DNA from: Gemmatimonadales bacterium
GTDB taxonomy: Bacteria; Gemmatimonadota; Gemmatimonadetes; Gemmatimonadales; GWC2-71-9
Direction of reading: 5' to 3'
Assembly (NCBI GenBank): GCA_036505055.1
Contig: DASXUE010000052.1
Location: 1,239-65,238 of the forward strand
Length of the DNA stretch: 64,000 nt
The notes below the pieces were generated by a model. It saw only the letters and a list, made by a program, of their open reading frames with translations, did no database searches and was not told the origin of the DNA. The translations under genes and the position numbers were made by a program. The stretch's first letter is position 1. Every line of letters starts with the position of its first letter. Below are positions 13,684-54,891 of this stretch, one piece after another.

Positions 13684-14310
13684 TCACCTGTTGCGATCAA
13701 GCACAAACGACGTCGGTAGCCGGATCCGGACCCGGACCGCGTGACCGTGCATGCGCCCGGGCCGGAACAGAGACGCCGCGAGCGCCCGCCAGGCCGCAGC
13801 CACGAACGCGGGATTCGTCGCTGCCACAACGGCGATCGACCCTGGCTCGACGCGTCCCGTCGTGTCCACCACCGCCTCGAGCACAACCCGCCCTTCGAGC
13901 CCAGCCTGGCGCAGCAAGTCGGGGTAGGCGGGGACCGGGCCGGCGAGGAGCAGGGGAGGGTCGTCGGCGAGCCGCACGTCGATGGGCTCGCCGCCGGCGG
14001 AGCCCGGCGCGCCCGTAGTCCCATCGATCCAGGCCACCAGCGGCCGCGCTGGGAAGAGGGGTCCCGGTGCCGCAATGCCGTCAGGCGGGGCCGTGGAGAT
14101 GTCGGGGGGCAGCTGAAAGTCCCCGTCGGGCACATTCGGCGCCACCGGCGTCGTCGACTCCACGCGGCGTGACGTGCCCGGCGCCGTGATCGGCTCGACC
14201 ATCACGATCCGCTGGGACGCTGGTTCGGCGTCTCGGGCCGTCGCCCAGACAGCGGCGAGCGCGAGGCCCGCATGGACGGTGAAGGACACGGCCGTGCTGG
14301 CGATGCGCAT
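13684..14310 (-). CDS. TonB C-terminal domain protein (third paralog)
   Basis: ATG at 14310 is preceded by GGAG. TM segment, then AYPDLLRQAGLEGRVVLEAVVDTTGR..GRMHGHAV, which closely parallels 12893..13570. The upstream part of track ORF 13684..14499 would overlap the kinase gene and was discarded. Confidence 0.75.
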   Translation of the reverse strand: MRIASTAVSFTVHAGLALAAVWATARDAEPASQRIVMVEPITAPGTSRRVESTTPVAPNVPDGDFQLPPDISTAPPDGIAAPGPLFPARPLVAWIDGTTGAPGSAGGEPIDVRLADDPPLLLAGPVPAYPDLLRQAGLEGRVVLEAVVDTTGRVEPGSIAVVAATNPAFVAAAWRALAASLFRPGRMHGHAVRVRIRLPTSFVLDRNR

Positions 14311-15842: not shown

Positions 15843-15843
15843 G

Positions 15844-16512
15844 TCAGGCCCGGACCACGTAGCCCACGCCGCGCACGGTGTGAATCAGCTTCGGCTCGCG
15901 ACCGTGGTCGATCTTCTTCCGCAACCGGGTGATCACGACGTCCACGATGTTGGTGCCGGGATCGAAGTGGTAATCCCAGGCGTACTCGGTGATCAGCGTC
16001 CGCGACATCACCCGCCCCTGATGGCGCATCAAATATTCGAGGACCGCGTATTCCTTCGGCGTCAGCTCGATCCGCTTGCCGTCCCGCGACACTTCGCGGC
16101 TGCCGGTGTCGAGCGCCAGCCCCGCGACCTTGAGGACCGGCGGGGCGATCTCCTTGGGCCGCCGCCCGATCGCCTCGACGCGCGCCAGCAGCTCTTCGAA
16201 CGCGAAGGGCTTCGTCACGTAATCGTCCGCGCCCATGCGCAGGGCCTGGACCTTGAAGTCCACGGCGTCTTGCGCGGTGAGCACCAGCACCGGGAGCCCG
16301 ATTCCGCGGTCCCGCAGCGTGCGCAGCACATCGATCCCGCTCAGCTTGGGGAGCCGCAGGTCCAGCACGACGAGATCGCAGTGCCCGCCGGTCGCGACGC
16401 GCAATCCCTCCTCGCCGTCGCCCGCCAGCTCGACGTGATAGCCGGCTTCCTCCAGGCCGCGCCGGACGTACTCGCCCACCGTCTTGTCGTCCTCGACGAC
16501 CAGGATCTTCAT
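15844..16512 (-). CDS. OmpR/PhoB-family response regulator (CusR-like)
   Basis: MKILVVEDD..DLVVLDLRLP receiver domain plus a winged-helix output (LTPKEYAVLEYL..HTVRGVGY). Its ATG is in an ATGA overlap with the upstream kinase stop. Confidence 0.9.
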   Translation of the reverse strand: MKILVVEDDKTVGEYVRRGLEEAGYHVELAGDGEEGLRVATGGHCDLVVLDLRLPKLSGIDVLRTLRDRGIGLPVLVLTAQDAVDFKVQALRMGADDYVTKPFAFEELLARVEAIGRRPKEIAPPVLKVAGLALDTGSREVSRDGKRIELTPKEYAVLEYLMRHQGRVMSRTLITEYAWDYHFDPGTNIVDVVITRLRKKIDHGREPKLIHTVRGVGYVVRA

Positions 16513-39435: not shown

Positions 39436-39839
39436 CGAACGATGTCGAGCGCGTAGCTCGCGAGCACCAGCGGCGTCCGCAGCTGGTAGTTCGCCTGCGC
39501 GACCCCCTGAATCGTCCCGTCGTACCGCGCCACGGCATTCACGTTCTCCACGCCGATCGTCAGCACCACCGCGTCCTGCGTCAGCTGGCCGACGAGCGCG
39601 AACCTCGTGCTCGTCCCGCCGAGCGTTTGCTGGAAGAGACGCATCCCCGCTCCCGCTGTAGCGCTCGTCAGGGCCGCGGGACCGGTGATGGTGAACACCA
39701 TCGCCGAATCGGCGCCCGAGTTGGGCGTCGTCAGCTTCACGCTGAGGACGCCGGGGACCGGGCCCACGGGGTCTCTGCCGCAGCTCAGACCAACAGCGGC
39801 CAGGAGGGCGAGCGCCACGACGCCGACGGTGGGCTTCAT
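39432..39839 (-). CDS. Small lipoprotein, function unknown
   Basis: ATG at 39839 is in an ATGA overlap with the M6 protease stop. MKPTVGVVALALLAAVGLSC lipobox. Confidence 0.65.
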   Translation of the reverse strand: MKPTVGVVALALLAAVGLSCGRDPVGPVPGVLSVKLTTPNSGADSAMVFTITGPAALTSATAGAGMRLFQQTLGGTSTRFALVGQLTQDAVVLTIGVENVNAVARYDGTIQGVAQANYQLRTPLVLASYALDIVR

Positions 39840-42409
39840 GGCCGCGCTCCCTTCGGTCGGGCGATTCGCGACATCGCGTTCGCGCTGAGCGGCGCGCCCG
39901 TCCCCTTCACCCAGGCGAGGAAGTCGCCGATGTCGAAGCCGCCGTTGTTGTTCCCGAGGAAGTCGAGATAGCGCCGTTGGTCGGCGGTCAGCGGCACCGT
40001 GGGACCGAGCAGATGATTCACCACATCGGCCGTCGCGAGCGTGGGTGCCGAGACCGAGAATGTGAACGTCCGCGTCTGGGTCTGCGCACCCGATGTCAGC
40101 AGCACGTCGTACGAAAAACTCCCCGTGTCGTGCGGAAATCCCGACACGATCCCCGTGGACGCCGCCAGGGTCAGTCCTTGCGGCAGGGCGCCGCCTGTCA
40201 CGGTCCAAGTGTAGGTCCCGGTGCCACCGCTGGCGCGCAGCGTGTCGCCGTACGAGGCGCCCATCACGCCCGCGGGGCGCGCGGCGCCCGAGCTGACCGC
40301 CAGCGCCGTCGCAAATGTCGCGACCACCGTATACGGCCGACCCATCGGCAGGGTGACGACGAGGTTGGTGGTCGTCGTGTCGCCGCTCCAGTTCCCGAAG
40401 AACCCGCCGGAGTCGGGCGTCGCCGTGAGCTGAACGGCGCTGCCGTCGGCGATGAACTGGCCGGCGAGGTTGACGGGAGGGTTGGACGCGATCGTCCCGC
40501 CACCGACCTTCGTCGCGACCAGCTTGAACTCGCGGTCCAAGGTGGCGGTGAATGTCCCTCCCGACAGGCTCCCGGTGATCGAATGCGTGCGGGCCCCGAA
40601 GTCCGACCAGGAGACAAACCGCCAGCGCGTGCGAGCGTCCCCCGACAGCTGCGTATCGGCGACGCTGACCGTGTGCGAGGAGCCGTCATCCAGCAGGTCG
40701 TGGAAGATGTTGACATTGACGTCGTCCAACACGACGACTGCATTCGTGTCGCTGCCGCTGATCACGGTGAGGTTACCGAACCGCAGCCGGAACGCCATCG
40801 CACCGCCCGGGATGAGCTGCCGAATCGAGTCGACCGCAAGACCCATGAAGCCGCCGTCGAGGTTGTTCCGGGCGGCGGGGCTCGTCCCGAACGCGTACGT
40901 GGTGTTCCCGCTCTTGCCCGGGTACAGATCGCCGGCGTCGCCCCGGTTGCAGCCGCCGGCGCCGCACCACAGCTGCCGCAGGCGGTCCGCCTCCTCGACG
41001 ACGAGGCCGTGAATCGGCCCGAAGTTGACCGCGTTGCCGTTGCGAAACCCGTTGTCCGTGATCTGCGTCGAATCCGCGTGCCAGATGAGGAGGCCGCCCC
41101 CGCACGACGCCGGCAGACTGCTGCGCTGGCAATGGAGCCGAATCATCGCCGTATCGGCCTGGGACGCCTGCCTGTTCTCGAGCAACACGTACTCGCCCCG
41201 CGTGTTCGTGCCCTGCACGCGCACGTAGAAGGCGGTGTCTGACACGGCGGCGGCGCCGAAGGTGTAGGTCCCGGTCGCCGAGAGCAGGCGGAGGGACACC
41301 CACCCCAGCTCGCTGAGCGACCACGCCTCCATGCGGGACGGGCTCGGCGGGCTGGTGTAGTTGCCCGAGCCCATGAGCCCCCACTCGCCGATGCCCTCGG
41401 TCGAACCCTGCGTGTCGTACAGATCCGGGAGTCCCAGCGCGTGGCCAAACTCGTGCGCCGCGGTACCGATCGGCATGATCTTCGTGTCGTCGCACGGGGA
41501 CGTGCCGGGTGCGGTACCGCCCAACGCGCTGGACGCGAAGTAGTCGCTGATGCGGACATTACCGAAGCCGGACTTGGCGGAGACGTCGTTCGTGACGTAG
41601 TCCTGAAAGTTCGTCTGGTTGGCGTTCGCCAGGACGTAGCGGTGCGACCAGATGTGATTGTTCGCCGAACCGGCGGGGCCGCACGCGCCGTCTTTCGTGG
41701 CGTGCGCGAACATGATCATGTCCACGTAGCCGTCGTCGTCCCCGGAATTCGGGATCAAGTCCGGCCCGTCGTTGTCGAACTGTGTGAAGGTCACACCCGA
41801 TGGGCCCGTGTCCACTCGGGCCAGCGCTTGGCGAAACCCATTCTGCATCCGCCTGATGGCGTCGCTCGAGAACAGGCCGTTACAGTTCGTCCCCCCGAAC
41901 GGATTGCCGCTACAGGTCCCCGGCGTGCCGGTGTACGTCGCCTCGGCGCTGTCGAGCCGCACCCAACGCGTGATTCTGCCCGTCATGTGAAACAGCCCGT
42001 TCGACATCTGCTCGTAGAACGTCCGCAACGTGTACGGGTTGCCCCCCGGGGGCGACGTGGAAAACAGCACGCTGGTGTACTGTGCCGTGTCGCGCATGAA
42101 CTGGAGGGAGTCGATCCCCTGATAGCTGAGGAGAACGACGGGCACCTGGAGCGTCCCGGTCACCGCGCTGGCCGTCGGGAGGGGCCCGCGGAGCAGCAAC
42201 GGCGCGTTCAGCGTGCCCATCCGGCCCTGCGCCAGCAGCTGCCGCCGGAGATCGCTAACCCGCGTAGCCCGGACGCGCCACACGCCGTCCTTCCGGAAAT
42301 CGAAGCCGGGGATCTCCCACCGGGGATGGAGCTGGCTCTGGGCGTGGGCGGGTGCCGGCACGAGCGCGACGACGGCGAGCGCCGCGACCAGCGCAACCAA
42401 ACCTCTCAC
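39836..42409 (-). CDS. M6 (immune inhibitor A-like) secreted metalloprotease with C-terminal Ig-like repeats
   Basis: GTG at 42409 is preceded by GGAGGA with 8-nt spacing and gives the signal peptide M-RGLVALVAALAVVALVPAPAHA. Zinc site AAHEFGHALGLPDLYD. The track start (TTG at 42448) is possible. Confidence 0.8.
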   Translation of the reverse strand: MRGLVALVAALAVVALVPAPAHAQSQLHPRWEIPGFDFRKDGVWRVRATRVSDLRRQLLAQGRMGTLNAPLLLRGPLPTASAVTGTLQVPVVLLSYQGIDSLQFMRDTAQYTSVLFSTSPPGGNPYTLRTFYEQMSNGLFHMTGRITRWVRLDSAEATYTGTPGTCSGNPFGGTNCNGLFSSDAIRRMQNGFRQALARVDTGPSGVTFTQFDNDGPDLIPNSGDDDGYVDMIMFAHATKDGACGPAGSANNHIWSHRYVLANANQTNFQDYVTNDVSAKSGFGNVRISDYFASSALGGTAPGTSPCDDTKIMPIGTAAHEFGHALGLPDLYDTQGSTEGIGEWGLMGSGNYTSPPSPSRMEAWSLSELGWVSLRLLSATGTYTFGAAAVSDTAFYVRVQGTNTRGEYVLLENRQASQADTAMIRLHCQRSSLPASCGGGLLIWHADSTQITDNGFRNGNAVNFGPIHGLVVEEADRLRQLWCGAGGCNRGDAGDLYPGKSGNTTYAFGTSPAARNNLDGGFMGLAVDSIRQLIPGGAMAFRLRFGNLTVISGSDTNAVVVLDDVNVNIFHDLLDDGSSHTVSVADTQLSGDARTRWRFVSWSDFGARTHSITGSLSGGTFTATLDREFKLVATKVGGGTIASNPPVNLAGQFIADGSAVQLTATPDSGGFFGNWSGDTTTTNLVVTLPMGRPYTVVATFATALAVSSGAARPAGVMGASYGDTLRASGGTGTYTWTVTGGALPQGLTLAASTGIVSGFPHDTGSFSYDVLLTSGAQTQTRTFTFSVSAPTLATADVVNHLLGPTVPLTADQRRYLDFLGNNNGGFDIGDFLAWVKGTGAPLSANAMSRIARPKGARP

Positions 42410-42454
42410 AAGCGATTCCTCCGGGAGCGCGACGAGTCGACGACGCAATGTACC

Positions 42455-43843
42455 CTAGGAGACTGGCGCTTCGGAAGCTGTGCGACGGCTCACACCCCGC
42501 TGCGCCAGCCACCAGCCGAGCGCCATGAACAGCACGACGCCCCCTGCGACCTTCACCTCGTACACCATCGCGGCCTCGCCGGCCGGCGGTACGAACCCCA
42601 GCACGATCGCAAAGGCCACGGAGAGGATCCCCGACCACCCTGCCGCCGCGGTGCGCAGCGAGTGCTCGCGCCGCAGCCGCAGGAACGCCGCGAACATGTA
42701 GATGTAGGGGATGAAGAACAGGATCAAGGTCGTCTGGGTGAGCACCAGATACGCGTTCTTCACGGTGGTGCCGACCAGGCTCGCCACGACGAACGCCGTC
42801 GCGAGCACGCCCTGCGTCAAGAGCGACACGTACGGCGTCTGCCACCGCGGGTGAACGCGGGAGAACGCCTCGGGCAGCGCCCGATCCACGCCGGCCGCAT
42901 ACGGCAGTCGCGCCGAGCCGGCCAGCCATGCCCCCACACCGCCCAGATTCCCGAGGACGAGGAGGAGCGCCACGATGGCGGCGACGGGCGCGAGCGGGGC
43001 CCACCCGAGCCGCTCCACGAGCGCCGCCGTCGCCTGCGGCATCCCATTTGTGATGCTCACCGTTTCGGCGGGCAACGCCACCAGGATCGCCGCCGTGCCG
43101 AGCACGTACATCCCCACGATCGCGAGGCCCGAGAGCGCGATCCCGCGCCGCAGCGTCGCCGCCGGATCGCGAACCTCGCCGCCCAGGGTCGACGCCAGCT
43201 CCAACCCGCCGAAGGCGAAGATCAACGTTCCGAACAGATTGATAGACTGGAAGTCGAGCTTGTGCGGCACGAGATCCGACATCCGCAGCGGCGTCGCACT
43301 CCCATGGAGCGCGAGCGAGGCCGTCGCCAGCGCGAGGAAGATGGCGAGCGTCACCCACGTGCCATACGCGCCCAGGTTCTGCAGCCACTTCCCCACCCGC
43401 AGCCCGACGACATTGAGCCCCACGGCGATCCACAGCCCCGCCAGCGACAGCACGCCGATGAACGTGGGATCGTCCCCCAAGCGCACGAAGCGCGGGCCCC
43501 CTGCGTACGCCGCGATGGCCGCCGTCGCCACGAGCAACGAGGGGTAATAGAAGAGGTTGTTGACCCAGTAGCCCCAGCCTGCCACGAATCCCTGGCGTGC
43601 GCCGAAGGCGCGGGTCACCCACCGATAGATCCCGCCTGTGCCGGGGTCGATGTCCGCCAGCTCGCGCACGACGATCGCGGAGGGAATGAAAAAGATCACC
43701 ATCGCGACGGCCCAGAGCAGCAGGCCGGCGAGACCGAATTGACTCGCCGCCGTGGTGAGCCAGCGGAGCCCAACGATCGCCGAAATGTTGAAGAGCACGA
43801 CGTCGCGCAGGGTCATCACGCGCGGCAGCGGACTGTGATTCAT
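42455..43843 (-). CDS. APC-superfamily amino acid permease
   Basis: 462 aa with about 12 TM segments. N-terminal LRDVVLFNISAIVGLRW block, typical of the glutamate/GABA-antiporter-like subfamily. Confidence 0.85.
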   Translation of the reverse strand: MNHSPLPRVMTLRDVVLFNISAIVGLRWLTTAASQFGLAGLLLWAVAMVIFFIPSAIVVRELADIDPGTGGIYRWVTRAFGARQGFVAGWGYWVNNLFYYPSLLVATAAIAAYAGGPRFVRLGDDPTFIGVLSLAGLWIAVGLNVVGLRVGKWLQNLGAYGTWVTLAIFLALATASLALHGSATPLRMSDLVPHKLDFQSINLFGTLIFAFGGLELASTLGGEVRDPAATLRRGIALSGLAIVGMYVLGTAAILVALPAETVSITNGMPQATAALVERLGWAPLAPVAAIVALLLVLGNLGGVGAWLAGSARLPYAAGVDRALPEAFSRVHPRWQTPYVSLLTQGVLATAFVVASLVGTTVKNAYLVLTQTTLILFFIPYIYMFAAFLRLRREHSLRTAAAGWSGILSVAFAIVLGFVPPAGEAAMVYEVKVAGGVVLFMALGWWLAQRGVSRRTASEAPVS

Positions 43844-43961
43844 GGCGGGAACTTACGGAGCGTCGGACACGTACGCTAACTCACGTGGGCACGGACCCTT
43901 GCGAATTCGTGTCCGTCCGGCTAAGCTGTACCACCGCCAAACACATAGGCTTCGAGGTTGC

Positions 43962-45167
43962 GTGCGAACTGAGACCCTGCAGCACATCGCGCTGTTCGAC
44001 AAATGCAGGAACTTCACCCGGGCGCGCGAGATCCAGGCCGCCGGGCTGTATCCGTACTTCAAGGCCATCTCCCAGTCCGAAGACACCGTCGTCGTCATCG
44101 AAGGCAAAGAGCGGATCATGATGGGCTCCAACAACTACCTGGGGCTCACGCATCATCCGGCAGTGCTCTCAGCTGCGAAGGATGCGCTGGAGCGCTATGG
44201 CTCGGGCTGCACCGGCAGCCGGTTCCTGAACGGGACGCTCGACCTCCACGAGCAGCTCGAGGCCGAGCTGGCGGAGTTCTTCGGGAAGGAAGCCTGCCTC
44301 ATCTTCTCGACCGGTTATCAGGCGAATCTCGGACTGATTTCGGGGCTGGTGGGACGCGGGGACGTCGTCTTCCTGGACAAGCTGGACCACGCCTCGATCG
44401 TGGACGGCGCCAAGATGTCGCACGGGGAAACCCTGCGGTTCAATCACGGCGACCTGGCGGGGCTCGAGCGCAAACTGCTCAAGGTCCCCGAGGGCACCGG
44501 CACCATGGTGATCGTGGACGGCGTCTACTCCATGGAAGGGGATATCGCCGACGTCCCGGGCCTGCTGAAGCTCACCCAGAAGTACGGTGCCGCGCTGGCG
44601 ATCGACGACGCGCACTCGGTGGGCGTGCTGGGCCCCCGCGGGGACGGCACCGCGGCGCACTACAACCTGGTGGACGAGGTCGATCTGATCGTCGGGACCT
44701 TCTCGAAGTCGCTGGCTTCGATCGGCGGCTTCGCGGCCGGGTCCGACAACGTGATTCATTTCCTGCGCCACCACTCGCGGCCGCTGATCTTCACCGCGGC
44801 CCTGCCCCCGGCGAACACCGCGGGCGTGCTGGCGGCCCTCCACGTCATGCAGCAGGAGCCGGACCGCCGCGATCGCCTCTGGACCAACACGCGGCGCCTG
44901 CAGGAAGGGCTGCGCTCCCTGGGCTTCGACATCGGCCCCACTGAGACGCCGATCGTCCCCGTCCTGATCGGGCCGCTGGACAAGACCTTCCTGTTCTGGC
45001 GTCAGCTGTTCGACGCCGGCGTGTTCACCAACCCCGTGGTGCCCCCGGCGGTGCCGCCGTCGCAATGCCGGCTGCGCACGAGCCTGATGGCGACGCACAC
45101 CGCCGAACAGATCGACTTCGCCCTGGGGACCTTCGCGCGGCTCGGGAAAGAGCTGGGGGTCATCTGA
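43962..45167 (+). CDS. spt: Alpha-oxoamine synthase, serine palmitoyltransferase-like (PLP-dependent)
   Basis: GTG at 43962 follows a lower-GC 118-bp spacer. GLYPYF, GSNNYLGL, DDAHSVG and the PLP-Lys block GTFSKSLASIGGF (SPT-like rather than the GT[LF]GKA of KBL/BioF). RPLIFTAALPP. Confidence 0.7.
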   Translation: MRTETLQHIALFDKCRNFTRAREIQAAGLYPYFKAISQSEDTVVVIEGKERIMMGSNNYLGLTHHPAVLSAAKDALERYGSGCTGSRFLNGTLDLHEQLEAELAEFFGKEACLIFSTGYQANLGLISGLVGRGDVVFLDKLDHASIVDGAKMSHGETLRFNHGDLAGLERKLLKVPEGTGTMVIVDGVYSMEGDIADVPGLLKLTQKYGAALAIDDAHSVGVLGPRGDGTAAHYNLVDEVDLIVGTFSKSLASIGGFAAGSDNVIHFLRHHSRPLIFTAALPPANTAGVLAALHVMQQEPDRRDRLWTNTRRLQEGLRSLGFDIGPTETPIVPVLIGPLDKTFLFWRQLFDAGVFTNPVVPPAVPPSQCRLRTSLMATHTAEQIDFALGTFARLGKELGVI

Positions 45168-45172
45168 GCGCA

Positions 45173-46279
45173 GTGGAGATCGCGCCCGTCTCCGGCGGGC
45201 GCGATCTCGAGCAGTTCATTTCCTTCCCGTACGACCACTACCGCGGCGATCCCATGTGGGCCCCCCAGCTGCGCATGGACGTCCGCACCCTGCTCTCCCC
45301 CAAGAAGAATCCGTTCTTCCAGCACGCCGAGGCACAGTACTTCGTCGCGCGGTCGAACGGTCGAACGGTCGGACGGATCGCGGCCATCAAGAACGACGCC
45401 CACAACCGGACCTGGAAGGACACGGTCGGGTTCTATGGGTTCTTCGAGTCAATCGACGATCAGGGCGTCGCGGACGCCCTCTTCGACGCCGCGGGCGCGT
45501 GGCTCCGCGCCCGCGGCTGCGACACGATGCGCGGGCCCGCCAGCCCGTCGACCAACGACGAATGCGGCCTCCTGGTGGACGGCTTCGAGACGCCCGCGAC
45601 GCTCATGATGCCGCACAACCCCCGCTACTACGTCGCGCTGACGGAGCGGGCTGGGTTCCACAAGGCCAAAGACCTCATCTGCTACGAGTCGACCTACACG
45701 GAGCTGCCGGAGCGGCTCGCCCGCGGGGCGAAGCTCGTCGCGCAGCGCCGCGGCATCACCCTGCGCTCGCTCGACCTCAAACGATTCACCCAGGAAGTGG
45801 AGACGATCAAGGCCCTGTACAACGCCGCCTGGGAGCAAAACTGGGGCACGGTGCCCCTCACCGACGCCGAGATCGACCACCTCGCCAAACAGCTCAAGCC
45901 CATCGTGGTCCCCGAGCTGGTGGTCTTCGCCGAAATGAAAGGCGAGATCATCGGGTTCGGCGTGGCACTGCCCGACTTGAACGTCGCGCTGCGGCACAAC
46001 CCGTCGGGCCGGCTGTTCCCCGGCGTCGTGAAAGTCCTGTGGCACGCGCGCAAGATCTCGCGGCTCCGCGTCATGCTGCTCGGCGCCTTGCCGGCGTACC
46101 GCCACAGCGGCGTGGATGCGCTGATGTACCACTGGATCTGGACGCAGGGGTACGCCCGGGGCTGTCGCTGGGGCGAGGCGGGCTGGATCCTCGAGGACAA
46201 CGCCCCGATGACCAACGCGGCGCTGAACCTCGGGTTCCGCCCGTACAAGACGTACCGCATGTACGACAAGGCGCTGTGA
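45173..46279 (+). CDS. GNAT-fold acyltransferase-like protein (bacterial ceramide synthase candidate)
   Basis: GTG at 45173, 5 nt after the spt stop. 368 aa. The fold and function call rests on the recalled family pattern (LEQFISFPYDHY..DPMWAPQL) and on synteny, so it is tentative. Confidence 0.55.
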   Translation: MEIAPVSGGRDLEQFISFPYDHYRGDPMWAPQLRMDVRTLLSPKKNPFFQHAEAQYFVARSNGRTVGRIAAIKNDAHNRTWKDTVGFYGFFESIDDQGVADALFDAAGAWLRARGCDTMRGPASPSTNDECGLLVDGFETPATLMMPHNPRYYVALTERAGFHKAKDLICYESTYTELPERLARGAKLVAQRRGITLRSLDLKRFTQEVETIKALYNAAWEQNWGTVPLTDAEIDHLAKQLKPIVVPELVVFAEMKGEIIGFGVALPDLNVALRHNPSGRLFPGVVKVLWHARKISRLRVMLLGALPAYRHSGVDALMYHWIWTQGYARGCRWGEAGWILEDNAPMTNAALNLGFRPYKTYRMYDKAL

Positions 46280-47244
46280 ACGCCTTCGTAACGGGAGGCA
46301 CGGGCTTCGTCGGCGCCCATCTGGTCCAGGCACTCCAGGCCCGGGGCGACCGGGTGACGTGCCTGGTACGCCGGCCCGCGCTCGCCGAACGGCTGGGGTG
46401 GCGCGACGTGCGCATCGTGCGGGGCGACCTCGACGATCCGCAGGCCCTGCGGGAAGGGTGCGCCGACGCCGACGTCGTCTTTCACGTCGCCGGCAAGATC
46501 GTGGCGCGCGACGCGCTCGAGTTCATGGCGACGAACCGTGACGGGACGGCCAACGTGCTCGAAGCGGCCCAGGAACGCGGCGTGACCCGCTTCGTGCTGG
46601 TCTCCTCGCTCGCCGCGGCGGGACCGACGCTGCCGGGGCAGCCGATCGATGAGCAGCGCCCCCCGGCGCCGGTGACCGACTACGGGCGGTCCAAGCTCGC
46701 CGCCGAGGTGTTGGTTCGGGCGATGCCCTTCCCGTGGACCATCGTCCGACCCCCGGTTGTGTACGGGGAGTGGGACCGGGGCACGCTGACGATCTTCCAG
46801 CTGGCGCGTCGCCCCGTCATGCCGGTGTTCGGGGACGGCTCACAGGAGCTCTCCGTGATCCATGCGGACGACCTCGCCCAGGCCCTGATCGCGGCGGGCA
46901 CGACTCCCGCAACGGCCGGCCGCGTGTATTTTGCGGCGCACCCGGCCACAACGACCAGCCGCGAGCTGGCGCTGGCGTGCGGGCGGGCCCTCGGCACGAC
47001 GCCCCGCATCGTTCCCGTACCGGCGTTCGTGGCACGCGGTGTGCTGTGGACGGTGGGCTCGCTCGCGCATCTCGCCGGGCGCGCCACACTGCTCTCGGCC
47101 GACAAGGCGAACGAGTACCTGGCGCCCGCGTGGACCTGCCGGCCGGACGCCTTGATGAGCGATGGGAATTGGCGGGCGACGATCGACCTCGAGTCCGGCC
47201 TGCGTCGCACCGCGGCCTGGTACCGGGAGGTGGGATGGCTTTGA
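46276..47244 (+). CDS. NAD(P)-dependent epimerase/dehydratase-family SDR (ceramide reductase candidate)
   Basis: GTGA overlap with the upstream stop. Rossmann motif VTGGTGFVGAHL. YGRSK catalytic motif. Confidence 0.8.
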   Translation: MNAFVTGGTGFVGAHLVQALQARGDRVTCLVRRPALAERLGWRDVRIVRGDLDDPQALREGCADADVVFHVAGKIVARDALEFMATNRDGTANVLEAAQERGVTRFVLVSSLAAAGPTLPGQPIDEQRPPAPVTDYGRSKLAAEVLVRAMPFPWTIVRPPVVYGEWDRGTLTIFQLARRPVMPVFGDGSQELSVIHADDLAQALIAAGTTPATAGRVYFAAHPATTTSRELALACGRALGTTPRIVPVPAFVARGVLWTVGSLAHLAGRATLLSADKANEYLAPAWTCRPDALMSDGNWRATIDLESGLRRTAAWYREVGWL

Positions 47245-48116
47245 AGCGGTACACGCCGATCGATGTGGCGACGCTGCTCTATATCGTCTTGGCGACGGTG
47301 GCAGTGCTCCTGTCGTTCCGCGGCGACTCCATTCCCGGGTGGCCGTGGCTGCTCGTCGCCCATGGCCTGCTGGCAGGGCTCGTGTGGCTGGCGCCGCGGG
47401 CGCGCGCCGCGGGTCCGGTGGGACGCGTCTTCGGCGACTGGTACGCGTTGTTGCTGCTCGCGGCGCTGTACGGCGAGATCGGCGTCCTGACGCTCGACGC
47501 GGGGTTTCAGAACGACCTCGCGATCCAGCGGCTCGAGGCGTGGGTCTTCGGCTCGCAGGTCTCCTACCGCTGGATCCGGGAAATGCCCAGTCCCGCGCTG
47601 TCGTGGCTGCTGCACGCCTGCTATTTGGCGTATTACCCGATCCTGTACGCGTCCCCCGCCGGCCTCTGGCTGGCGGGTCGGCGCGACGCCGCCCGGCATA
47701 CCATCTTCGCGGTGATGGTGACGTTCTACCTCTGCTATGTGGTGTTCTTGTTCTTTCCGGTCGCAGGGCCGCGCTACGCCTTCGACGCGGCGCACAACGC
47801 CGCGTCGGAAGTCGGCCCGGCGCGCTTTGCCGCCTGGCTCTTGGACCGCGGCGACTCGTGGGGCGCAGCGTTCCCGTCGTCCCACGTGGCGGCGTCGGTC
47901 GTCGCCACGGGGATGGCGCTGCGCTACTGGCGGAAGCTGGGGCTCATGCTGCTGCCCTTCACGACCGGATTGATCCTCGCGGTCGTGTACGGCCAGTTCC
48001 ACTACGCCGTCGACGCGATGGCGGGACTCGTGGTGGCGGCGGTGATGCTTGGTGTGATGCAGACGGCCGAGGCCGAGGTGCCGCGCCGCGTGCCGGTGGC
48101 CGAGCTCAGCCTCTAG
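47235..48116 (+). CDS. PAP2-superfamily membrane protein, AUR1/sphingomyelin-synthase-like transferase candidate
   Basis: ATG at 47235, with a 10-nt overlap with the upstream gene. About 6 TM segments. PSSH and FHYAVD motifs (HYxxD without the SR of classical lipid phosphatases). Confidence 0.7.
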   Translation: MALKRYTPIDVATLLYIVLATVAVLLSFRGDSIPGWPWLLVAHGLLAGLVWLAPRARAAGPVGRVFGDWYALLLLAALYGEIGVLTLDAGFQNDLAIQRLEAWVFGSQVSYRWIREMPSPALSWLLHACYLAYYPILYASPAGLWLAGRRDAARHTIFAVMVTFYLCYVVFLFFPVAGPRYAFDAAHNAASEVGPARFAAWLLDRGDSWGAAFPSSHVAASVVATGMALRYWRKLGLMLLPFTTGLILAVVYGQFHYAVDAMAGLVVAAVMLGVMQTAEAEVPRRVPVAELSL

Positions 48117-49174
48117 TGGTGCATCATCATCGGCTCGGCGACCCCGGCCGACGCCTCTCGGAGGTAGTGCTTTAGGTCCACCTGATACAGTGAATCGCTG
48201 GGATCCACACGCGGCCACGAAACGTCCCGGTCGGGAATGAACAGGCCGCCGACCACCCCCATACCACCGTCCTTGATGACCTGCCCGGTCGGATTGTCGT
48301 AGATCACCCGCACGCGGTACCGGTGCGCGGGGACGATGTGCGCGCCGAGACGGGTCAGCCCGTAGAGTCTCCCCACCGGCACCGCAACGACCTGATCGCG
48401 CCCATCCCGCACCGGCTCGCCGCGCCAGATCAGCTCACCCGTCGTTGCATCCCACAGCTCGATGCTTACGCCGTACGCGTGCAGGTGTCCGCCGACGGCC
48501 ACGATGTCCCCTGGCACCGCGGGGCTGCCCTCGTAGGCCCTCACGGTGCGGCCGGGTGGCAAGTCGAAGGACTTGTCACCAACGGGGAACGCGACGTCGA
48601 GCTGCCAGGGCGACGCCGGAAACAACGGCCAGGGGCGCCGCTCGGCGGTGTAATTGAGGACGAGTCGCACCCGCACGCCTTGATAGCTGACCGGTGTCGG
48701 GTTGTGCAGCATGGCGCTCACGACGACGGTTTCGTTCCGCTCGAACGGCGCACCGAAGAGGAGCCAGGGAATGCGCACGTCGCCCGTCTCCTTTCCGGCC
48801 GCCGCGAGCCGCCGCGCGATCGGGAGGAACAGCTCCCGATGCGTCGGGTCGAGCACGTTGAAGTGATGGATCAGCTCGGCGGGGAGCGCTCGACCCGCCG
48901 CGTCCACGACCTCGGCGTGAAATCCGAAGATGGCCCCGCCGGCGGGAAAGCGGGCCAGTGAGACGGGAGGCTGAGGTCCTCCCATGTGGTCGCCCCGTTC
49001 GGCGCCGGCGGGGAGATCGACCGCGGGCAGCTCGATCGTCAGCTCCCCGCGACGGGCGTCCGCGGTCACGCGCGCGTGCGGCAGGCCACTGAGGTCCACC
49101 CCGGGCGAGGTACCCCCTCCGCGGGCCGGGACGACGCCTAGGGCGACCACTGTGAGCAGTGTGCGTCTGAGCAT
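48113..49174 (-). CDS. Secreted hypothetical protein, PHM/DBH-like copper monooxygenase candidate with Met/His tail
   Basis: Signal peptide. Ligand-like pattern HH(103-104)..H157..HxH(230,232)..M305 and C-terminal PMMMHH. The fold assignment is inference only. Confidence 0.6.
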   Translation of the reverse strand: MLRRTLLTVVALGVVPARGGGTSPGVDLSGLPHARVTADARRGELTIELPAVDLPAGAERGDHMGGPQPPVSLARFPAGGAIFGFHAEVVDAAGRALPAELIHHFNVLDPTHRELFLPIARRLAAAGKETGDVRIPWLLFGAPFERNETVVVSAMLHNPTPVSYQGVRVRLVLNYTAERRPWPLFPASPWQLDVAFPVGDKSFDLPPGRTVRAYEGSPAVPGDIVAVGGHLHAYGVSIELWDATTGELIWRGEPVRDGRDQVVAVPVGRLYGLTRLGAHIVPAHRYRVRVIYDNPTGQVIKDGGMGVVGGLFIPDRDVSWPRVDPSDSLYQVDLKHYLREASAGVAEPMMMHH

Positions 49175-49245: not shown

Positions 49246-49911
49246 TCAATGCGGCGACGCGGCCGGGTCGGCGGAACGCCGCCGCTGCAGCCAGACGATC
49301 AGGAGGAAGGCCACGGTGAAGCCCAGCGTCCCCAGCAGCAGCACCGGCGTCGAAATGGGCAGCCACTTTCCAAACGCGGCGTAGATCCACCACTCGGGGA
49401 ACCGCCCCACGAAGGTCGCCAAGAGGTACCGCTCGATCGGGTAGCGGGTCAGGGGTCCGAGAATGCGCGCCGGCCAGTAGGGCAACGGCGTGAACGCCAT
49501 CAGGACGATGGCCCAGAAGGGGCTGAGAGCGAACAGCTCGACGCATTTTCGTACCCAGTAGGACTGGCGGACACCCTCGAGGCGCGGGTGGAAGATCGCG
49601 TAGCGGTGGAGGTAGTAATTGAGGTACTCCATGTAACACGCCCCCAGCGTCGCCACGAGGCCCACGAGGACGGGGGGATACACGCGCGCGGCCACGAACA
49701 TCACCGGCTCGAAGAACACCGGGAAGAGCGGCGAGAGCGGGCCGTTCATGACGACCGATATAACGAAGAAGCCGACCAGCCCGGCGAGTCCGGGCCACCG
49801 CAGCGTCGGATAGATCGCGAGCAGGCCGACCACGCCGGTGAGGCGGATGACCGCGTCCCATTGCGGTGTGCCGCGCTTCCGAACGAGCGCTTGACCGAGG
49901 GCCCGGAGCAC
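49246..49911 (-). CDS. YqaA/VTT (DedA-superfamily)-like membrane protein
   Basis: GTG at 49911, 5 nt after the upstream stop. Multi-TM with a FTPLPYWPARILGPL..LLATFVGRFP block. The rest of the 376-aa track ORF overlaps the neighbouring gene in another frame. Confidence 0.6.
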   Translation of the reverse strand: MLRALGQALVRKRGTPQWDAVIRLTGVVGLLAIYPTLRWPGLAGLVGFFVISVVMNGPLSPLFPVFFEPVMFVAARVYPPVLVGLVATLGACYMEYLNYYLHRYAIFHPRLEGVRQSYWVRKCVELFALSPFWAIVLMAFTPLPYWPARILGPLTRYPIERYLLATFVGRFPEWWIYAAFGKWLPISTPVLLLGTLGFTVAFLLIVWLQRRRSADPAASPH

Positions 49912-49916
49912 CCGGG

Positions 49917-50372
49917 CTAGGCCGACACGACGTACAGCCGGTAGGCGAAGAACGCCAGCACGGCGCCCTCGAGCACCCACGCCATGGGCTGGCGATAGTA
50001 CCCGATGAGCATCTGCCACCCCCAGTAGCCCGTGTCCTTGAAGAACGCGAGAGTGAACTTCTTTTTCGAGAACGGCCACAGGAGCGGGAGCCCCACCGTG
50101 CTCCCAATGTCGGCCGCGTAGTGCGCCAGGATCGCGATCAGCGCGAATACGGCATAGTGCGGCGAAAACAGCGCCACGATCCCGCTCACGACCAGGGCGA
50201 AGAGGATGCTGTGGGTCACGGTGCAGTGGAATTCGGGCTTCGCGAACCCCGCTTTCACGACGAGCGAGTCGGCGTTCGGCAGGAAATGCATGCCGAGGAC
50301 GAAGACCGCGGTCTTGGGGTTCCAGTCGTACGTGGCGATGGCGAGAGCGAGCGGGACGTGGCCGACTTGCAT
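49917..50372 (-). CDS. Membrane-bound metal-dependent hydrolase, YdjM/DUF457-like
   Basis: 151 aa. His/Asp pattern (HVPLA..HFLPNAD..THS..AHYAADIGS). Start is directly adjacent to the upstream stop. Confidence 0.7.
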   Translation of the reverse strand: MQVGHVPLALAIATYDWNPKTAVFVLGMHFLPNADSLVVKAGFAKPEFHCTVTHSILFALVVSGIVALFSPHYAVFALIAILAHYAADIGSTVGLPLLWPFSKKKFTLAFFKDTGYWGWQMLIGYYRQPMAWVLEGAVLAFFAYRLYVVSA

Positions 50373-51374
50373 TCAATCCTCCGTCAACAGGGGTTCGAAC
50401 CGCCGGGTCTCAAGCGAACGATAGGCCGCGAGCACGACGGCGAGGTCGCGACGCGCGACGGCGAGGGACATCTCGGGCTGGCCCCGCTCGCGCACACAAG
50501 CGAGGAAATGACGCAGCATCGCGCGGTAGCCCATGAGATCGCGGACGCCGGGGAAACGTAACCGCGTGCGCCGCCCCGTGACCAGCGCAAACAGCCCGTT
50601 GCTTTCGAAGGTGATGGTGCCCTCGGTCCCATAGATTTTCGACAGCCCCAATCCAGCAAGGCGATTCGTGACGCTCCAGGCGTGCAGCAGCTTGCCGACC
50701 GTCCCGTTCTCGAACCGGACCAGTACCTCCAGGCCGTCTTCGAACGGCGCGACCGGCGCGCGACCCGTCTCGGGGCGGGCGGCGCACACCTCGCGCACCG
50801 GGCCGCCCAGGTGGCAGAGATAGTTCACCCAGTGGACGCCCCCCTCGAGCAGCGCGCCGCCGCCCATCATCGCGGGATCGGCGCGCCAGCCGGTGGGGCG
50901 CTGGCGCCCGGCCCGGTTCAGCTCGAGGAACAGCGGCTCGCCGACATCCCCCGCGTCGAGATGGCTCCGCAGGACTCGGGCGGCGGGCTTGAAGTGGTAG
51001 TTCTCCGCGACCATGCAGATCGTCTTGGCCCGCCTCACGGCCTCTTCGATCGCGGCCACTTCCGTCAACGTGCGGGCGACGGGCTTCTCGATCAGCGTGG
51101 CCTTGCCGTGCCCGGCGGCGAGGCTCGTGTGCTCCACGTGAAAGGCGTGCGGGGTGCAGATCACGACCGCATCCACCCGTGGGTCGGCGCACGCTTCCTC
51201 GTAACTCCCGAAGGCGCCGATGCCCCCGTAGCGGCGCTGGTACTGCTCCGCCTTTTCCCGCGAGCGGCTGGCGTAGAGGAGCTGCACCCCGCCGAGCGAC
51301 CGCGCCACGCGGCTGTGCACGCCGGCGATCCGCCCGCACCCCAGCATGCACAGGCGGACGGGGGACGCGGTCAC
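50373..51374 (-). CDS. Gfo/Idh/MocA-family NAD(P)-dependent oxidoreductase
   Basis: GTGA overlap with the GMC stop. Rossmann motif LGCGRIAGVH. EKP motif (LIEKPVA). Confidence 0.85.
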   Translation of the reverse strand: MTASPVRLCMLGCGRIAGVHSRVARSLGGVQLLYASRSREKAEQYQRRYGGIGAFGSYEEACADPRVDAVVICTPHAFHVEHTSLAAGHGKATLIEKPVARTLTEVAAIEEAVRRAKTICMVAENYHFKPAARVLRSHLDAGDVGEPLFLELNRAGRQRPTGWRADPAMMGGGALLEGGVHWVNYLCHLGGPVREVCAARPETGRAPVAPFEDGLEVLVRFENGTVGKLLHAWSVTNRLAGLGLSKIYGTEGTITFESNGLFALVTGRRTRLRFPGVRDLMGYRAMLRHFLACVRERGQPEMSLAVARRDLAVVLAAYRSLETRRFEPLLTED

Positions 51375-52930
51375 GCGTCTCCCTCCCCCTCCACGACGAT
51401 GTGACGCCCCACCCGCAAGGCGTTCGCGGCAATCGTGAGACTCGGGTTGACTCCGCCCGAGCTCGGAAAGAAGCTCGCGTCGACCACGTAGAGGTTCGGA
51501 ACCCCGAAGAAGCGGCACCACGGGTCGAGGACGGCGCGCGCCGGATCGTCGCCGAAGCGGCACGTTCCCAGCGCGTGCGAGAAGGTGTTGATGGGCTTGC
51601 GCACCCGAATCAGCGCCCCGGCGCGACGCAGGATCCGGGCGGCTTCCCGATGGAGCGCCCCGCGCGCCTGCCGGTCGCGCCGGGAATAACGGTGGAACAC
51701 CCGCGGGATCGGCGCGCCGTAGCGATCGGTCTTGGCGGGATCGATCACCACGCGGTTCTCGCGGTCGGGCAGGTCCTGCGCGATGCACAGGAGGAACACC
51801 TGGCGGTCGGCGGTCTTGGCGCCGATCGTGCCGATCGGAAACCCGCCTTCGGCGGCGATGTATTCCGGCGGGGGCACCTGGAGCGCTTGAATGATCCCCC
51901 AGGGCCCGGCAGGCCCGCTGCGGTTGCGGCCGCCGAAGTAGAAGTCGGCGATGGCAACTTGTTTGTGGAACACCCGCTCGGGATTCGTCGGGGCTCCGAA
52001 AATGCCGATCACGATCCCGGAGCAATGGCGCATGAGACTGCGGCCGATCCACGCGCCGTTCGGCTCCACCGTCCCGAGCCCGGAGGCCAGGAGCAGCGCC
52101 GCGGATGGAATCGCACCCGCGCTCACGACGCAGACGCGGCACGGGACGCGGAATCTCCGTCCCGTGCCGGCGTCGACGCAATCCACGCCCGCCACCCGCT
52201 TCCCCTGGCGCACGAGCCGCAGCGCGATCGTGCTGTGGAGCACGGTCGCACCCCCGGAGATCGCCGCGGGAAGCACCGTGACCGACAGATCGTTCTTCGC
52301 GCCGATCTTGCAGGGGAACAGGTCGCACGTAAGGCACTGCACGCAGGACCGCCGCCCGTCGGTCGACGCGAAGTTGATCGCCAATGGAATCGGAAACGGA
52401 TGGAGCCCGAGCGTCGTCGCGCTCTCCGCGATGCGGCGTGCGGGCGCGGAAAACGGCGGCGGCGCCCCGGCGTATGCGCCCGACCGGCGCGGCTCGGTGG
52501 GATCGATTCCCGCCACGCCCACCACACCCAGCAGGCGTTCGGCCTCGTCGTAGAAGGGCGCCAGCTCGTCGTAGCCGATGGGCCAGTCGACGGCGTCGGA
52601 GCAAACCCGCGGGTACCGCTCGCGCAGATGAAAGTCCCCTTCACGCAGCCGGAACGATGCCGCCCCGTAAAAGACGGACTTGCCGCCCACCGCCTCGTCG
52701 GGATAGAAGTGCGTGCGGCCCAGGCCGTAGCGCGGTGTCTCGAAGGGCGATGCGCTGCGGTACTTGCGATCGATGAGGATGGCCTGCGGATCCCAGGCCG
52801 AGTCGTCGCGCTCCACCCAGCGGCCGCGCTCGATCAGCAGCACGCGCAGGCCTGCGCGCACGGCCGCCAGCGCGACCATGCTGCCCCCGAACCCCGTCCC
52901 CACCACAACCAAATCCCACTCCTGCGTCAT
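51371..52930 (-). CDS. GMC-family FAD-dependent oxidoreductase
   Basis: AAGGAGG immediately upstream of the ATG at 52930. DLVVVGTGFGGS FAD motif. C-terminal HALGTCRFG..VVDASFFPSSGGVNPSLT. Confidence 0.85.
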   Translation of the reverse strand: MTQEWDLVVVGTGFGGSMVALAAVRAGLRVLLIERGRWVERDDSAWDPQAILIDRKYRSASPFETPRYGLGRTHFYPDEAVGGKSVFYGAASFRLREGDFHLRERYPRVCSDAVDWPIGYDELAPFYDEAERLLGVVGVAGIDPTEPRRSGAYAGAPPPFSAPARRIAESATTLGLHPFPIPLAINFASTDGRRSCVQCLTCDLFPCKIGAKNDLSVTVLPAAISGGATVLHSTIALRLVRQGKRVAGVDCVDAGTGRRFRVPCRVCVVSAGAIPSAALLLASGLGTVEPNGAWIGRSLMRHCSGIVIGIFGAPTNPERVFHKQVAIADFYFGGRNRSGPAGPWGIIQALQVPPPEYIAAEGGFPIGTIGAKTADRQVFLLCIAQDLPDRENRVVIDPAKTDRYGAPIPRVFHRYSRRDRQARGALHREAARILRRAGALIRVRKPINTFSHALGTCRFGDDPARAVLDPWCRFFGVPNLYVVDASFFPSSGGVNPSLTIAANALRVGRHIVVEGEGDA

Positions 52931-52962: not shown

Positions 52963-54858
52963 TCAAGACCGCACGCCTTCGCGAAACCGGCGGGCCTGAC
53001 CCGGGGTGATCATCTCGGCGAGGAGGATCTCCCGCACAATGGGCGCGCCGAAGACGTAGCCCCGCGCATCGGCGGCCAGCCACCGGTCCCACTCGAGCTC
53101 GTCGAGTGCGGCGTCGACGGTCCCGCCATCCAAACCCGTGGCGCCCGAAAGCCACGTGGGCTCCACGCGATCGCCCACCGCGGCCGCTGCGGCGAGGACC
53201 TGCTGAGCGGGGGCCGAGAGCCCGCGGAAGCGCAGGCACACCGCGCCGATCACCGCGGGCGGCAGATCGCCCGGCAGCGAATCGACCACGGTGCGCTTGG
53301 GTGTCGGCCAAGCCGGCGCGTCGGGGGCCAATTTGAACCCCGCGGCGATCGCCTCGACCATCGCCGCGGCAAGGAGGGGAATCCCTGCCGTGTCTCGCTC
53401 GATCCGCCGGGCCAGGCGTGCGGCGTCGTCGCTCCCGTACCGCGGCAGGGCCCAGGCGACCAGCGTTTGCAGGGCCGCCGCGTCCCAGCGCTCCAGCCGC
53501 ACGACCGCACCGTCGAGATCGCGCCCGATGCGGGCGCGTAGGGCGTCCTGCCGTTCGTCGCCCGGTGCTGCGAGCGCGCTGCCGAGCACGAGGAGCACGC
53601 GACGGCGTCCCATGTCGCGCGAGAACGCCGGAAGCGCGGCGCTGGTCTCGTCGTCCAGCCACTGCGCGTCATCGAGCGCGACGAGAAGCGGGCGCTCGTC
53701 GCTCGCCGCCGCGGCCGCCGCCGCGAGCGCCTCCGGCACGGGCAGCGGCGCAGCCCGGGCGGCGTAGCGCGCGCCGACCTCAGGATCGAGCACGGCCAGG
53801 GCGGCGAGCGCGCCGGGCGGGGCGCCGGCGAGCCCGGCGGAATCGGTGAGGCCTGCCACGAGCAGTCCCGCAACCCCGCTCCACGGGCGCGTGCGATCGG
53901 CCGGCACCGCGCGTGCCCACGCGACACTCGCGTCCTCCAATCGCGCGCGCCCGACTAGCTCATCCACGAGACGGGTCTTCCCTGCACCGGGCTCGCCTTC
54001 CACCAGGACGACCTGACCGCGTCCCTCGCGCGCGCGGCCCCAAGCGGCGAGCAGCGTCGCGAGCGCCGCCTCACGGCCGACGAGGGGTAGCCGTGCCCTG
54101 GGCGCAGGCGCAACAGGGATGCGCCGCCCGACGCGCACATCACGGATCCGTTCGATCATGCGGGTCGTCTCGAGAGCGGGCTCGGCATCGAGCCGCTCCG
54201 CCAGCGCGCGGGTGAGGGCCGCCGCCACGGCGAGGGCGCCCGCGCGGTCGCCAGCGAGGGCGAGGGCGCGCATCGCGGCCCGAGCCGCCGGCTCGTGCGC
54301 CGGATCGATCGCGAGCGCGCGTTGGGCGGCCTCGGCGGCGGCGGTCAGATTCCCCGCGCCGACGTGGCTCTCGGCGCCGCTCACCAGGACGTCGATGGTC
54401 CGGGCCCGCCACGCGGCCCGCTCCGCCGCGAGCCAGAGCTCGAAGTCGCCCGCGTCGGGGACGGCGAGGCCCTCGAGAAACTCCCCTTGCGCGAGCGCGG
54501 CGGCCCCGATCCAGTCGCCGCGCTCCTGGCGCGCAACCAGCTCGTCACAGTCCAGCACGAGTCCGTCCGCGACGAGGCGCACCTGATCGACGTCCACCAC
54601 GACGCGCTCCTCACCCAGCGTGCGCCGGAGGGCCCCCAAGGCCTCGCTCAACGAGTGGCGGGCCTGCTTCTCGTCGCGATCGCCCCACAACATCCCCACG
54701 AGGTGCTCCCGGGTCCGGCCCCGGCGGGGGCTGCGCGCCAGGTACACGAGCAGGGCCACGTGCTTGCGCCAGAGAAGCTCCGCGGGCGCCGGGGCGCCGT
54801 CGATCGTGATCGCGACCGGGCCGAGCACTCGGCAATGGACTAGGCGCGTCGATGGCAC
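52963..54858 (-). CDS. SARP-type regulator: OmpR-like wHTH + BTAD + P-loop (AAA_16/STAND-like) ATPase
   Basis: GTG at 54858 aligns with the paralog's N-terminus. [13 protein letters not shown] wHTH, BTAD helices, Walker [11 protein letters not shown], Walker [14 protein letters not shown]. Confidence 0.8.
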
Positions 54859-54891
54859 GAGAGAAGGATACTCTCTACATTCCGCCTCGTC

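Follow-up and report, generated by a model that had tools for sequence, protein, structure and literature searches.

Do Gemmatimonadota, abundant soil bacteria whose membrane lipids have to our knowledge been poorly studied, carry the genes for a sphingolipid, and how far would such a pathway extend beyond ceramide itself? The question is raised by a gene cluster in a 64,000-nt stretch of DNA (hereafter the window; all coordinates are window positions) from a metagenome-assembled genome (MAG) of a Gemmatimonadales bacterium (GCA_036505055.1, contig DASXUE010000052.1). Four tightly packed genes on the plus strand, at 43962-48116 (~4.2 kb), most likely form one operon for the synthesis of ceramide and the addition of its head group. 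We consider it likely that their products make a ceramide and attach a phosphate-linked head group to it, a reading based on the families and homologies of the proteins, the conserved structure of the operon, gene fusions and catalytic motifs.

The first gene (spt; 43962-45167, plus strand) has a GTG start with a GAGG motif upstream and encodes a 401-residue alpha-oxoamine synthase (AOS) of the serine palmitoyltransferase (SPT) type that matches Pfam Aminotran_1_2. A 5-nt spacer (TGAgcgcaGTG) separates its stop codon from the GTG start of the second gene (45173-46279, plus), which encodes a 368-residue tandem-GNAT protein resembling the N-acyltransferase bCerS. The stop codon of this gene is joined by a GTGA overlap to the start of the third (46276-47244, plus), which encodes a 322-residue extended short-chain dehydrogenase/reductase (SDR) resembling CerR and matching Pfam Epimerase. 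The fourth gene (47235-48116, plus), for a 293-residue polytopic membrane protein with a Pfam PAP2_3 match (65.9 bits), starts at an ATG 10 nt inside the end of the SDR gene; the overlap reads ATGGCTTTGA, and a GGGAGG motif lies ahead of the ATG. At 0.67-0.71, the operon does not differ in GC content from the rest of the window. A scan of 43600-48400 for sigma-70 promoters returned no match, and a terminator scan of the same interval returned two minus-strand hits within the GNAT gene that were not above shuffled expectation.

A first-pass annotation, made from the DNA letters and their translations, had described genes 1-3 as a contiguous ceramide operon ending at 47244. The three reading frames, their strand and their coordinates are borne out, including the 5-nt spacer and the GTGA overlap, but the PAP2_3 gene had been overlooked. 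Because this gene overlaps the SDR stop codon and follows the SDR gene in every related locus with room for it, we place the end of the feature at 48116 rather than 47244. The accompanying guess of a Gemmatimonadota-like source was correct, as a MAG labelled 'Gemmatimonadales bacterium' encodes a protein 100% identical to the GNAT protein. The window proteins are present in the public record as exact products (HEY3280468.1, VGJ83_08140 and HEY3280470.1), where the AOS is a 'PLP-dependent aminotransferase family protein', the GNAT protein is 'hypothetical protein VGJ83_08140', the SDR is an 'NAD-dependent epimerase/dehydratase family protein' and the PAP2_3 protein is a 'phosphatase PAP2 family protein'. 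Such generic labels hide the pathway, and automated metabolic reconstructions will therefore miss it.

To assess conservation, we examined 80 metagenome loci encoding GNAT proteins 59-78% identical to that of the window, counting only loci with room for the gene in question. Spt lay directly upstream of the GNAT gene in 51 of 56 loci, the SDR gene directly downstream in 55 of 55, and the PAP2_3 gene after the SDR gene in 46 of 46. Since the same order recurs in these related loci (51/56 and 55/55), the arrangement of the first three genes is not due to chance. The four-gene cassette is near-universal in the sampled soil Gemmatimonadales loci, and it recurs, reordered or fused, in other phyla.

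Three candidate ceramide enzymes

Spt carries a pyridoxal phosphate (PLP) block that can be read directly from its sequence (GTFSKSLASIGGF), and its GTFSKS (containing the PLP lysine), DHASIVDG and DDAHS motifs align with their counterparts in SmSPT, the enzyme of Sphingobacterium multivorum, and in SpSPT. The top NCBIfam model was SerpalmtaseCFB (NF047600; 533 bits), with BioF and KBL models at 329-393 bits. Among solved structures, S. multivorum SPT (PDB 3a2b, 8guh) was the best match at 432 bits, followed by Sphingomonas SPTs at ~318 bits; other AOS enzymes scored lower, with KBL at 265-304 bits, cysteate acyltransferase at 230-249, BioF at ~132-223, ALAS at ~165-204 and CqsA at 138. Sequence identity followed the same pattern (48.7% to SmSPT, 40% to Sphingomonas paucimobilis SPT, 35.7% to KBL and 31% to BioF). 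In a bootstrapped neighbour-joining (NJ) tree, the window Spt and its relatives fell into a clade with SmSPT (99%), and the SPTs were set apart from E. coli KBL and BioF with 93.5% bootstrap support. The initial call of an SPT-like AOS thus agrees with the tree and with the best NCBIfam and PDB matches; within the range of AOS enzymes against which it was to be placed, KBL and BioF are separated by the tree, whereas ALAS and CqsA were compared by PDB bit score only. These similarities indicate that gene 1 is most likely an SPT of the Bacteroidota/delta-proteobacterial subgroup, with serine as its predicted substrate.

This placement bears on what the operon lacks. Two subgroups of bacterial SPT have been described, and a dedicated acyl carrier protein (ACP) and acyl-ACP synthetase accompany only the alpha/beta/gamma-proteobacterial one (PMC9386255). 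The first-pass annotation had remarked on the missing ACP and synthetase genes. None is present in the operon, but their absence is not unusual, as it is expected for an Spt of the other subgroup (PMC9386255).

For the second and third genes, the link to characterized Caulobacter enzymes was made through 80 Sphingomonas loci centred on spt, with 10-kb flanks, which were found with S. paucimobilis SPT. The GNAT protein had full-length (residues 1-368) tblastn matches in 60 of these 80 loci, at 34-40% identity and E values of 1e-62 to 1e-69. The matching gene lies ~6-7 kb downstream of spt, behind an LptF/LptG pair, which is the position of the bCerS gene Swit_3908. One such locus (L078) reads, in order, ProB, Epimerase-family SDR, PP-binding ACP, spt, sensor kinase, two LptF/LptG genes and the GNAT homologue, matching the layout tabulated for S. 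wittichii (cerR Swit_3897, acpR 3899, spt 3900, LptG/F 3905-3906, cerS 3908; PMC11324152). Swit_3908 is in turn listed as the orthologue of Caulobacter CC_1154 (45% identity, 5e-109; table S2B of PMC11324152). In the reverse direction, the Sphingomonas GNAT protein had a single significant match in the window, the GNAT gene (6e-67).

Domain and structure searches were less specific. The GNAT protein matched Pfam Acetyltransf_1 weakly, NCBIfam returned weak hits to aminoglycoside acetyltransferases and nothing better, and a search of its sequence against the PDB matched no solved structure. Its AlphaFold (AF2) model (pLDDT 86, pTM 0.85) adopts a tandem-GNAT fold, for which the best matches were a clavulanate tandem GNAT, glucosamine N-acetyltransferase, MshD and FemX, with the fatty-acyl-transferring NMT also represented (TM up to 0.64). 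Such a fold is compatible with the predicted N-acylation of 3-ketosphinganine or sphinganine. On the strength of the full-length homology to the Sphingomonas gene at the bCerS position, gene 2 most likely encodes a bCerS homologue, the predicted N-acyltransferase of ceramide synthesis, in agreement with the relationship that had been suspected for the middle gene.

The SDR has a cofactor-binding TGGTGFVG motif at residues 6-13 and a YxxxK motif (YGRSK) at residues 136-140. It matched 76 of the 80 Sphingomonas spt loci at 35-40% identity (E values of 1e-35 to 1e-43), in each case through a gene just upstream of acpR-spt, the position of the CerR gene Swit_3897, itself the listed orthologue of Caulobacter CC_1164 (40% identity, 5e-50; table S2B of PMC11324152). 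The reverse search again gave a single significant window match, the SDR gene (9e-44). The genes at the CerR position are by far the nearer matches of the window protein, the best solved SDR reaching 74.6 bits. The sole threonine dehydrogenase among its PDB matches had an E value of 1e-8, compared with 1e-35 to 1e-43 for the Sphingomonas gene; the protein does not resemble an epimerase-type threonine dehydrogenase, the alternative that the first-pass annotation had named. These comparisons make gene 3 most likely a CerR homologue, that is, a predicted extended SDR reductase. Both the window SDR and its Sphingomonas homologue begin straight with the Rossmann motif and have no visible N-terminal signal peptide. 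Caulobacter CerR has been placed in the periplasm (as a peripheral inner-membrane protein), and Spt and bCerS in the cytoplasm (PMC11087976).

The PAP2_3 protein and a probable head group

The fourth protein scored 65.9 bits against Pfam PAP2_3 (PF14378; cutoff 27) and 26.2 bits against the general PAP2 family (cutoff 27.2). Across 39 aligned homologues, two motifs do not vary: PSSH (H217) and FHYAxD (H256 and D260). Inspected by eye, the window sequence has neither the KxxxxxxRP motif of PAP2 phosphatases nor their SR dipeptide before the second histidine, and instead reads HYAVD. The HYxxD form is known from sphingomyelin synthases and inositol phosphoceramide (IPC) synthases. The structural model (pLDDT 67.5) had as its best PDB fold matches yeast Aur1 and a membrane IPC synthase-ceramide complex (probabilities 1.00 and 0.99), although the scores were weak (TM 0.44-0.46, Foldseek E values of 0.03-0.14); PgpB was third (probability 0.57, TM 0.29). 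A search with the sequence itself against the PDB yielded chance antibody hits only. Aligned by hhalign with an IPC-synthase-type protein from a low-GC locus (L085), the window protein gave a probability of 73.8%, with the His-His-Asp catalytic motifs in register.

Together with its place in the operon, these features suggest that the PAP2_3 protein is probably a ceramide phospho-head-group transferase of unspecified specificity, which makes it a concrete candidate for a bacterial head-group transferase. No inositol-synthesis genes were found among the flanking genes examined, and inositol is therefore probably not the head group. Nor does the protein qualify as a phosphatidylinositol (PI)-dihydroceramide synthase of the BT1522 type, a candidate that we rejected. 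Against the corresponding model (NF052609; cutoff 480) it scored 16 bits, as befits a remote relative, whereas the L085 protein scored 291 bits (1.2e-86). It is also closer in sequence to the PAP2_3 proteins of three other distant loci, L082, L084 and L086 (33-36% identity), than to the L085 type (25%).

We tentatively raise the possibility that PAP2_3 proteins of the window type form a clade of their own among bacterial ceramide phospho-head-group transferases, distinct from the BT1522 inositol type, that could make ethanolamine- or glycerol-phosphoceramide and would, with Spt, bCerS and CerR, complete a self-contained four-gene phosphosphingolipid cassette. A search of Bacteroides with a eukaryotic ethanolamine phosphoceramide synthase as the query had found no such enzyme (PMC8791184, 2022).

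The PAP2_3 protein could instead be a lipid phosphatase that acts on ceramide-1-phosphate, a long-chain-base phosphate, undecaprenyl diphosphate or lipid A, in which case the product of the operon would be plain (dihydro)ceramide. Its match to the general PAP2 family lies just under the cutoff, its relatives weakly match the NCBIfam models for undecaprenyl-diphosphatase and LpxE, PgpB is the third of its fold matches, and phosphatase is what the public label calls it. We regard this as somewhat unlikely, given that the Aur1-type PAP2_3 family outscores PAP2 (65.9 versus 26.2 bits), that HYAVD is present and both KxxxxxxRP and SR are absent by eye, that the top two fold matches are IPC synthases and that the operon includes no ceramide kinase gene to supply a phosphorylated substrate.

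The proposed pathway and its alternatives

In the pathway that we favour, which ends in a head-group transfer, the PLP-dependent Spt would join serine and an acyl-CoA to form 3-ketosphinganine. The tandem-GNAT bCerS homologue would N-acylate the amine of this intermediate using a second acyl thioester, and dihydroceramide would then result from NAD(P)H-dependent reduction of the 3-keto group by the CerR-like SDR. Finally, the PAP2_3 protein would probably move a phospho-alcohol from a glycerophospholipid to the 1-hydroxyl of the ceramide, as IPC and sphingomyelin synthases do, yielding a phosphosphingolipid. In this scheme we infer the substrates, the order of acylation relative to reduction, and the whole of the head-group step, including the identity of the head group.

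Several points weigh against this reading. With 8431 clusters (50% identity) at E<=1e-3 and 1594 at E<=1e-30, the GNAT family is so extensive that not every member need be a ceramide synthase. The connection of the window genes to Caulobacter bCerS and CerR is transitive, passing through Sphingomonas genes and published orthologue tables. Spt, at 533 bits, falls below the equivalog cutoff of NF047600 (640), a cutoff set for the CFB group, and the AOS tree is small, with two outgroup sequences (E. coli KBL and BioF). The case for the PAP2_3 protein is weak by its scores (pLDDT 67.5, TM 0.44-0.46, E values of 0.03-0.14, 73.8% by hhalign and 16 bits against NF052609), and it is here that a phosphatase could take the place of a transferase. 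Ceramide synthesis in Gemmatimonadales is, moreover, a prediction from sequence.

The placing of acylation before reduction is taken by analogy from work in Caulobacter (PMC11087976). One group has put forward a eukaryote-like order for Caulobacter, in which the SDR first reduces 3-ketosphinganine and the GNAT protein then acylates sphinganine (PMC11324152), and a true 3-ketosphinganine reductase exists in Bacteroides (PMC9278070). We consider this order unlikely, as deletion of cerR in Caulobacter leads to a build-up of oxidized ceramide, and as CerR resides there in the periplasm, apart from the cytoplasmic Spt and bCerS (PMC11087976). Fusions of Spt to bCerS in distant loci (see below) also fit a direct hand-over of 3-ketosphinganine to the acyltransferase, although they are suggestive only.

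An amino acid other than serine would lead to a different lipid, whether a sulfonolipid of the capnine type (from cysteate), a 1-deoxyceramide (from alanine) or a glycine-derived base. The substrate choice of an AOS cannot be read reliably from its sequence, solved cysteate-C-fatty acyltransferases match Spt at 230-249 bits, a conserved amino acid permease adjoins the operon, and the same enzyme set has been reported to make 1-deoxyceramides, according to the supplement of PMC11334938. This reading is nonetheless very improbable, because Spt shares a clade with SmSPT and because an IPC-synthase-like transferase should need a free 1-hydroxyl, which capnine and 1-deoxy bases lack. Sulfonolipid synthesis in particular was judged unlikely on PDB bit scores (SPT, 432; cysteate enzyme, 249).

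We give almost no weight to the remaining possibility, a KBL and threonine dehydrogenase pair for threonine catabolism beside an unrelated GNAT gene, since the scores of 329-393 bits against KBL and BioF models are those of any AOS and the JGI label '8-amino-7-oxononanoate synthase' is the other point in its favour, whereas the PDB matches, the homology of the SDR to genes at the CerR position (1e-43, versus 1e-8 for threonine dehydrogenase) and the SPT clade of the NJ tree are the grounds for its rejection, and the conserved coupling to a bCerS homologue and a PAP2_3 gene, together with the Spt::GNAT fusions, also speaks against it.

Recurrence of the cassette, known systems and neighbouring genes

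The same operon is present on a 2.47-Mb Gemmatimonadales-like contig (L001), on which the PAP2 gene had not been called. In five loci of the synteny sample (L150, L156, L159, L162 and L164; GNAT proteins 59-63% identical to that of the window), no spt is adjacent; the SDR gene is next in 4 of the 5, and the PAP2_3 gene is present in both loci long enough to show it. In L159 the genes ahead of the GNAT gene are for an RRM RNA-binding protein and a solute-binding protein. These five genomes must either carry spt elsewhere or lack it.

More distant loci, with GC contents of 0.38-0.73, contain the same parts in other orders. Two proteins fuse Spt to the GNAT domain: P0127 (780 residues), from an 819-kb contig (L082 8001-10343), and P0201 (648 residues). 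A third protein, P0122 (784 residues), has two tandem bCerS-like domains. In L082 the order is SDR, Spt::GNAT fusion, PAP2_3, and in L086 it is Spt, GNAT, SDR, PAP2_3. L083 (5804-11430) reads SDR, Spt, GNAT and then a GT4 glycosyltransferase in the place of PAP2_3, which suggests that its product is a glycosphingolipid. An LPG_synthase_TM protein is also encoded after the ceramide genes of L083, and its Spt was called as two pieces of 131 and 278 residues, possibly owing to a frameshift or an assembly error. L084, from Candidatus Cloacimonas (7335-10074), encodes PlsY, a GNAT homologue (43% identity) and PAP2_3; neither an spt nor an SDR gene lies within 8 kb. This Spt-less run fits a remark in PMC11334938 that bCerS is not near Spt in Cloacimonadota. 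A fifth conserved component was considered and rejected, as the genes of ~355 residues that follow PAP2_3 in L084 and L086 were homologous neither to each other nor to a 353-residue gene of the window (BLASTP, E 1e-3).

The low-GC locus L085 combines PAP2_3, Spt, GNAT and SDR genes with those for a CDP-alcohol phosphatidyltransferase, inositol-1-phosphate synthase, PgpA, GtrA and a DAG-kinase-like protein. It thereby matches the content of the BT1522-1526 inositol-phosphoceramide operon of Bacteroides (PMC8791184). L085 thus joins a BT1522-type protein and inositol-lipid genes to spt-bcerS-cerR. The window PAP2_3 protein shares with the BT1522 inositol phosphoceramide synthase and yeast Aur1 its family, its His-His-Asp residues and its link to ceramide, but is only a remote relative of the BT1522 type.

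Compared with characterized systems, the window is alike in its enzymes and different in their arrangement. Spt (CCNA_01220), bCerS (CCNA_01212) and CerR (CCNA_01222) of Caulobacter crescentus belong to the same three enzyme families. In Caulobacter and Sphingomonas, however, several transcription units carry the genes, along with AcpR, AasR, Lpt paralogues and ceramide phosphoglycerate genes, whereas the window has one operon with no ACP or AasR, an Spt of the other subgroup, and a PAP2_3 gene for the head group in place of the kinase/CDP-alcohol system of Caulobacter. For Rhodobacteria, cerS has been stated always to be in a separate operon (PMC11324152); the window bcerS, by contrast, nearly abuts spt and overlaps cerR. 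The closest characterized enzyme to the window Spt is that of Sphingobacterium multivorum, whose subgroup likewise has no dedicated ACP (PMC9386255), yet Bacteroidota have their three ceramide genes at separate sites (PMC11334938), and in the window they are contiguous.

Clustering of these genes as such is not new. A study of Black Sea metagenomes describes clustering of spt, bcerS and cerR as frequent, uses their co-localization as a marker and predicts Spt-like proteins in ~40 phyla (PMC11334938). The contiguity emphasized by the first-pass annotation holds, and differs from the dispersed genes of Caulobacter, but it had already been described as common. The Black Sea clusters are a genomic prediction of the same kind as ours, and the accessible text does not discuss a PAP2_3 partner. 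Nor does that text name Gemmatimonadota, although its figures or tables may list the phylum. Searches of the literature for this phylum together with sphingolipids or SPT turned up nothing but community-profiling papers. The pathway itself is known; what is less ordinary is the conserved PAP2_3 partner of a non-BT1522 subfamily, the fusions and the contrast with the rule for cerS in Rhodobacteria. The conserved, compact operon predicts ceramide-based lipids in many Gemmatimonadota and, if the prediction is true, these bacteria are an added source of bacterial sphingolipids in soil lipidomes. Being small (~4.2 kb, four genes and no accessory ACP), the operon also lends itself to reconstitution in a heterologous host.

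Upstream of the operon and divergent from spt lies a gene for an APC-family amino acid permease (42455-43843, minus strand; Pfam AA_permease_2). It is present in 28 of 34 related loci with room for it, and its best NCBIfam matches were GadC-type antiporters, far under cutoff. As a candidate role, the permease could supply the amino acid substrate. The large gene upstream of it (39836-42448, minus) had tblastn counterparts in 18 of 34 related loci with room. Upstream of its own operon, L001 has a Peptidase_M6 (immune inhibitor A-like) gene (2907-5390).

On the other side, the gene for the 353-residue protein (48113-49174, minus) converges on PAP2_3, such that the stop codons overlap by 4 nt. 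The N-terminus of the protein is hydrophobic, resembling a putative signal peptide, and comparisons with Pfam, NCBIfam and the PDB gave no match. L001 encodes a counterpart with 57% identity (13086-14201), and the gene is found in 12 of 38 related loci with room. Beyond it, a VTT/DedA-type membrane protein adjoins a YdjM-family inner-membrane protein (49246-50372, minus), and a VTT gene is also present downstream of the operon in L001 (51% identity). DedA-family proteins have been implicated in lipid flipping.

Adjacent genes for a GFO/IDH/MocA and a GMC oxidoreductase follow the operon at a distance of 2-5 kb (50373-52870, minus). A homologous pair lies just downstream of the L085 cluster (15283-17125), at 33% and 45% identity (E values of 3e-66 and 2e-62). 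Few of the 80 close loci contain these genes (5 and 2, respectively), most having no room for the pair. The two oxidoreductases may be linked to modification of the sphingolipid or its head group. Further downstream, at 54000-60000, the GC content of the window reaches 0.74-0.756, compared with ~0.68-0.71 elsewhere, and the GC skew is negative.

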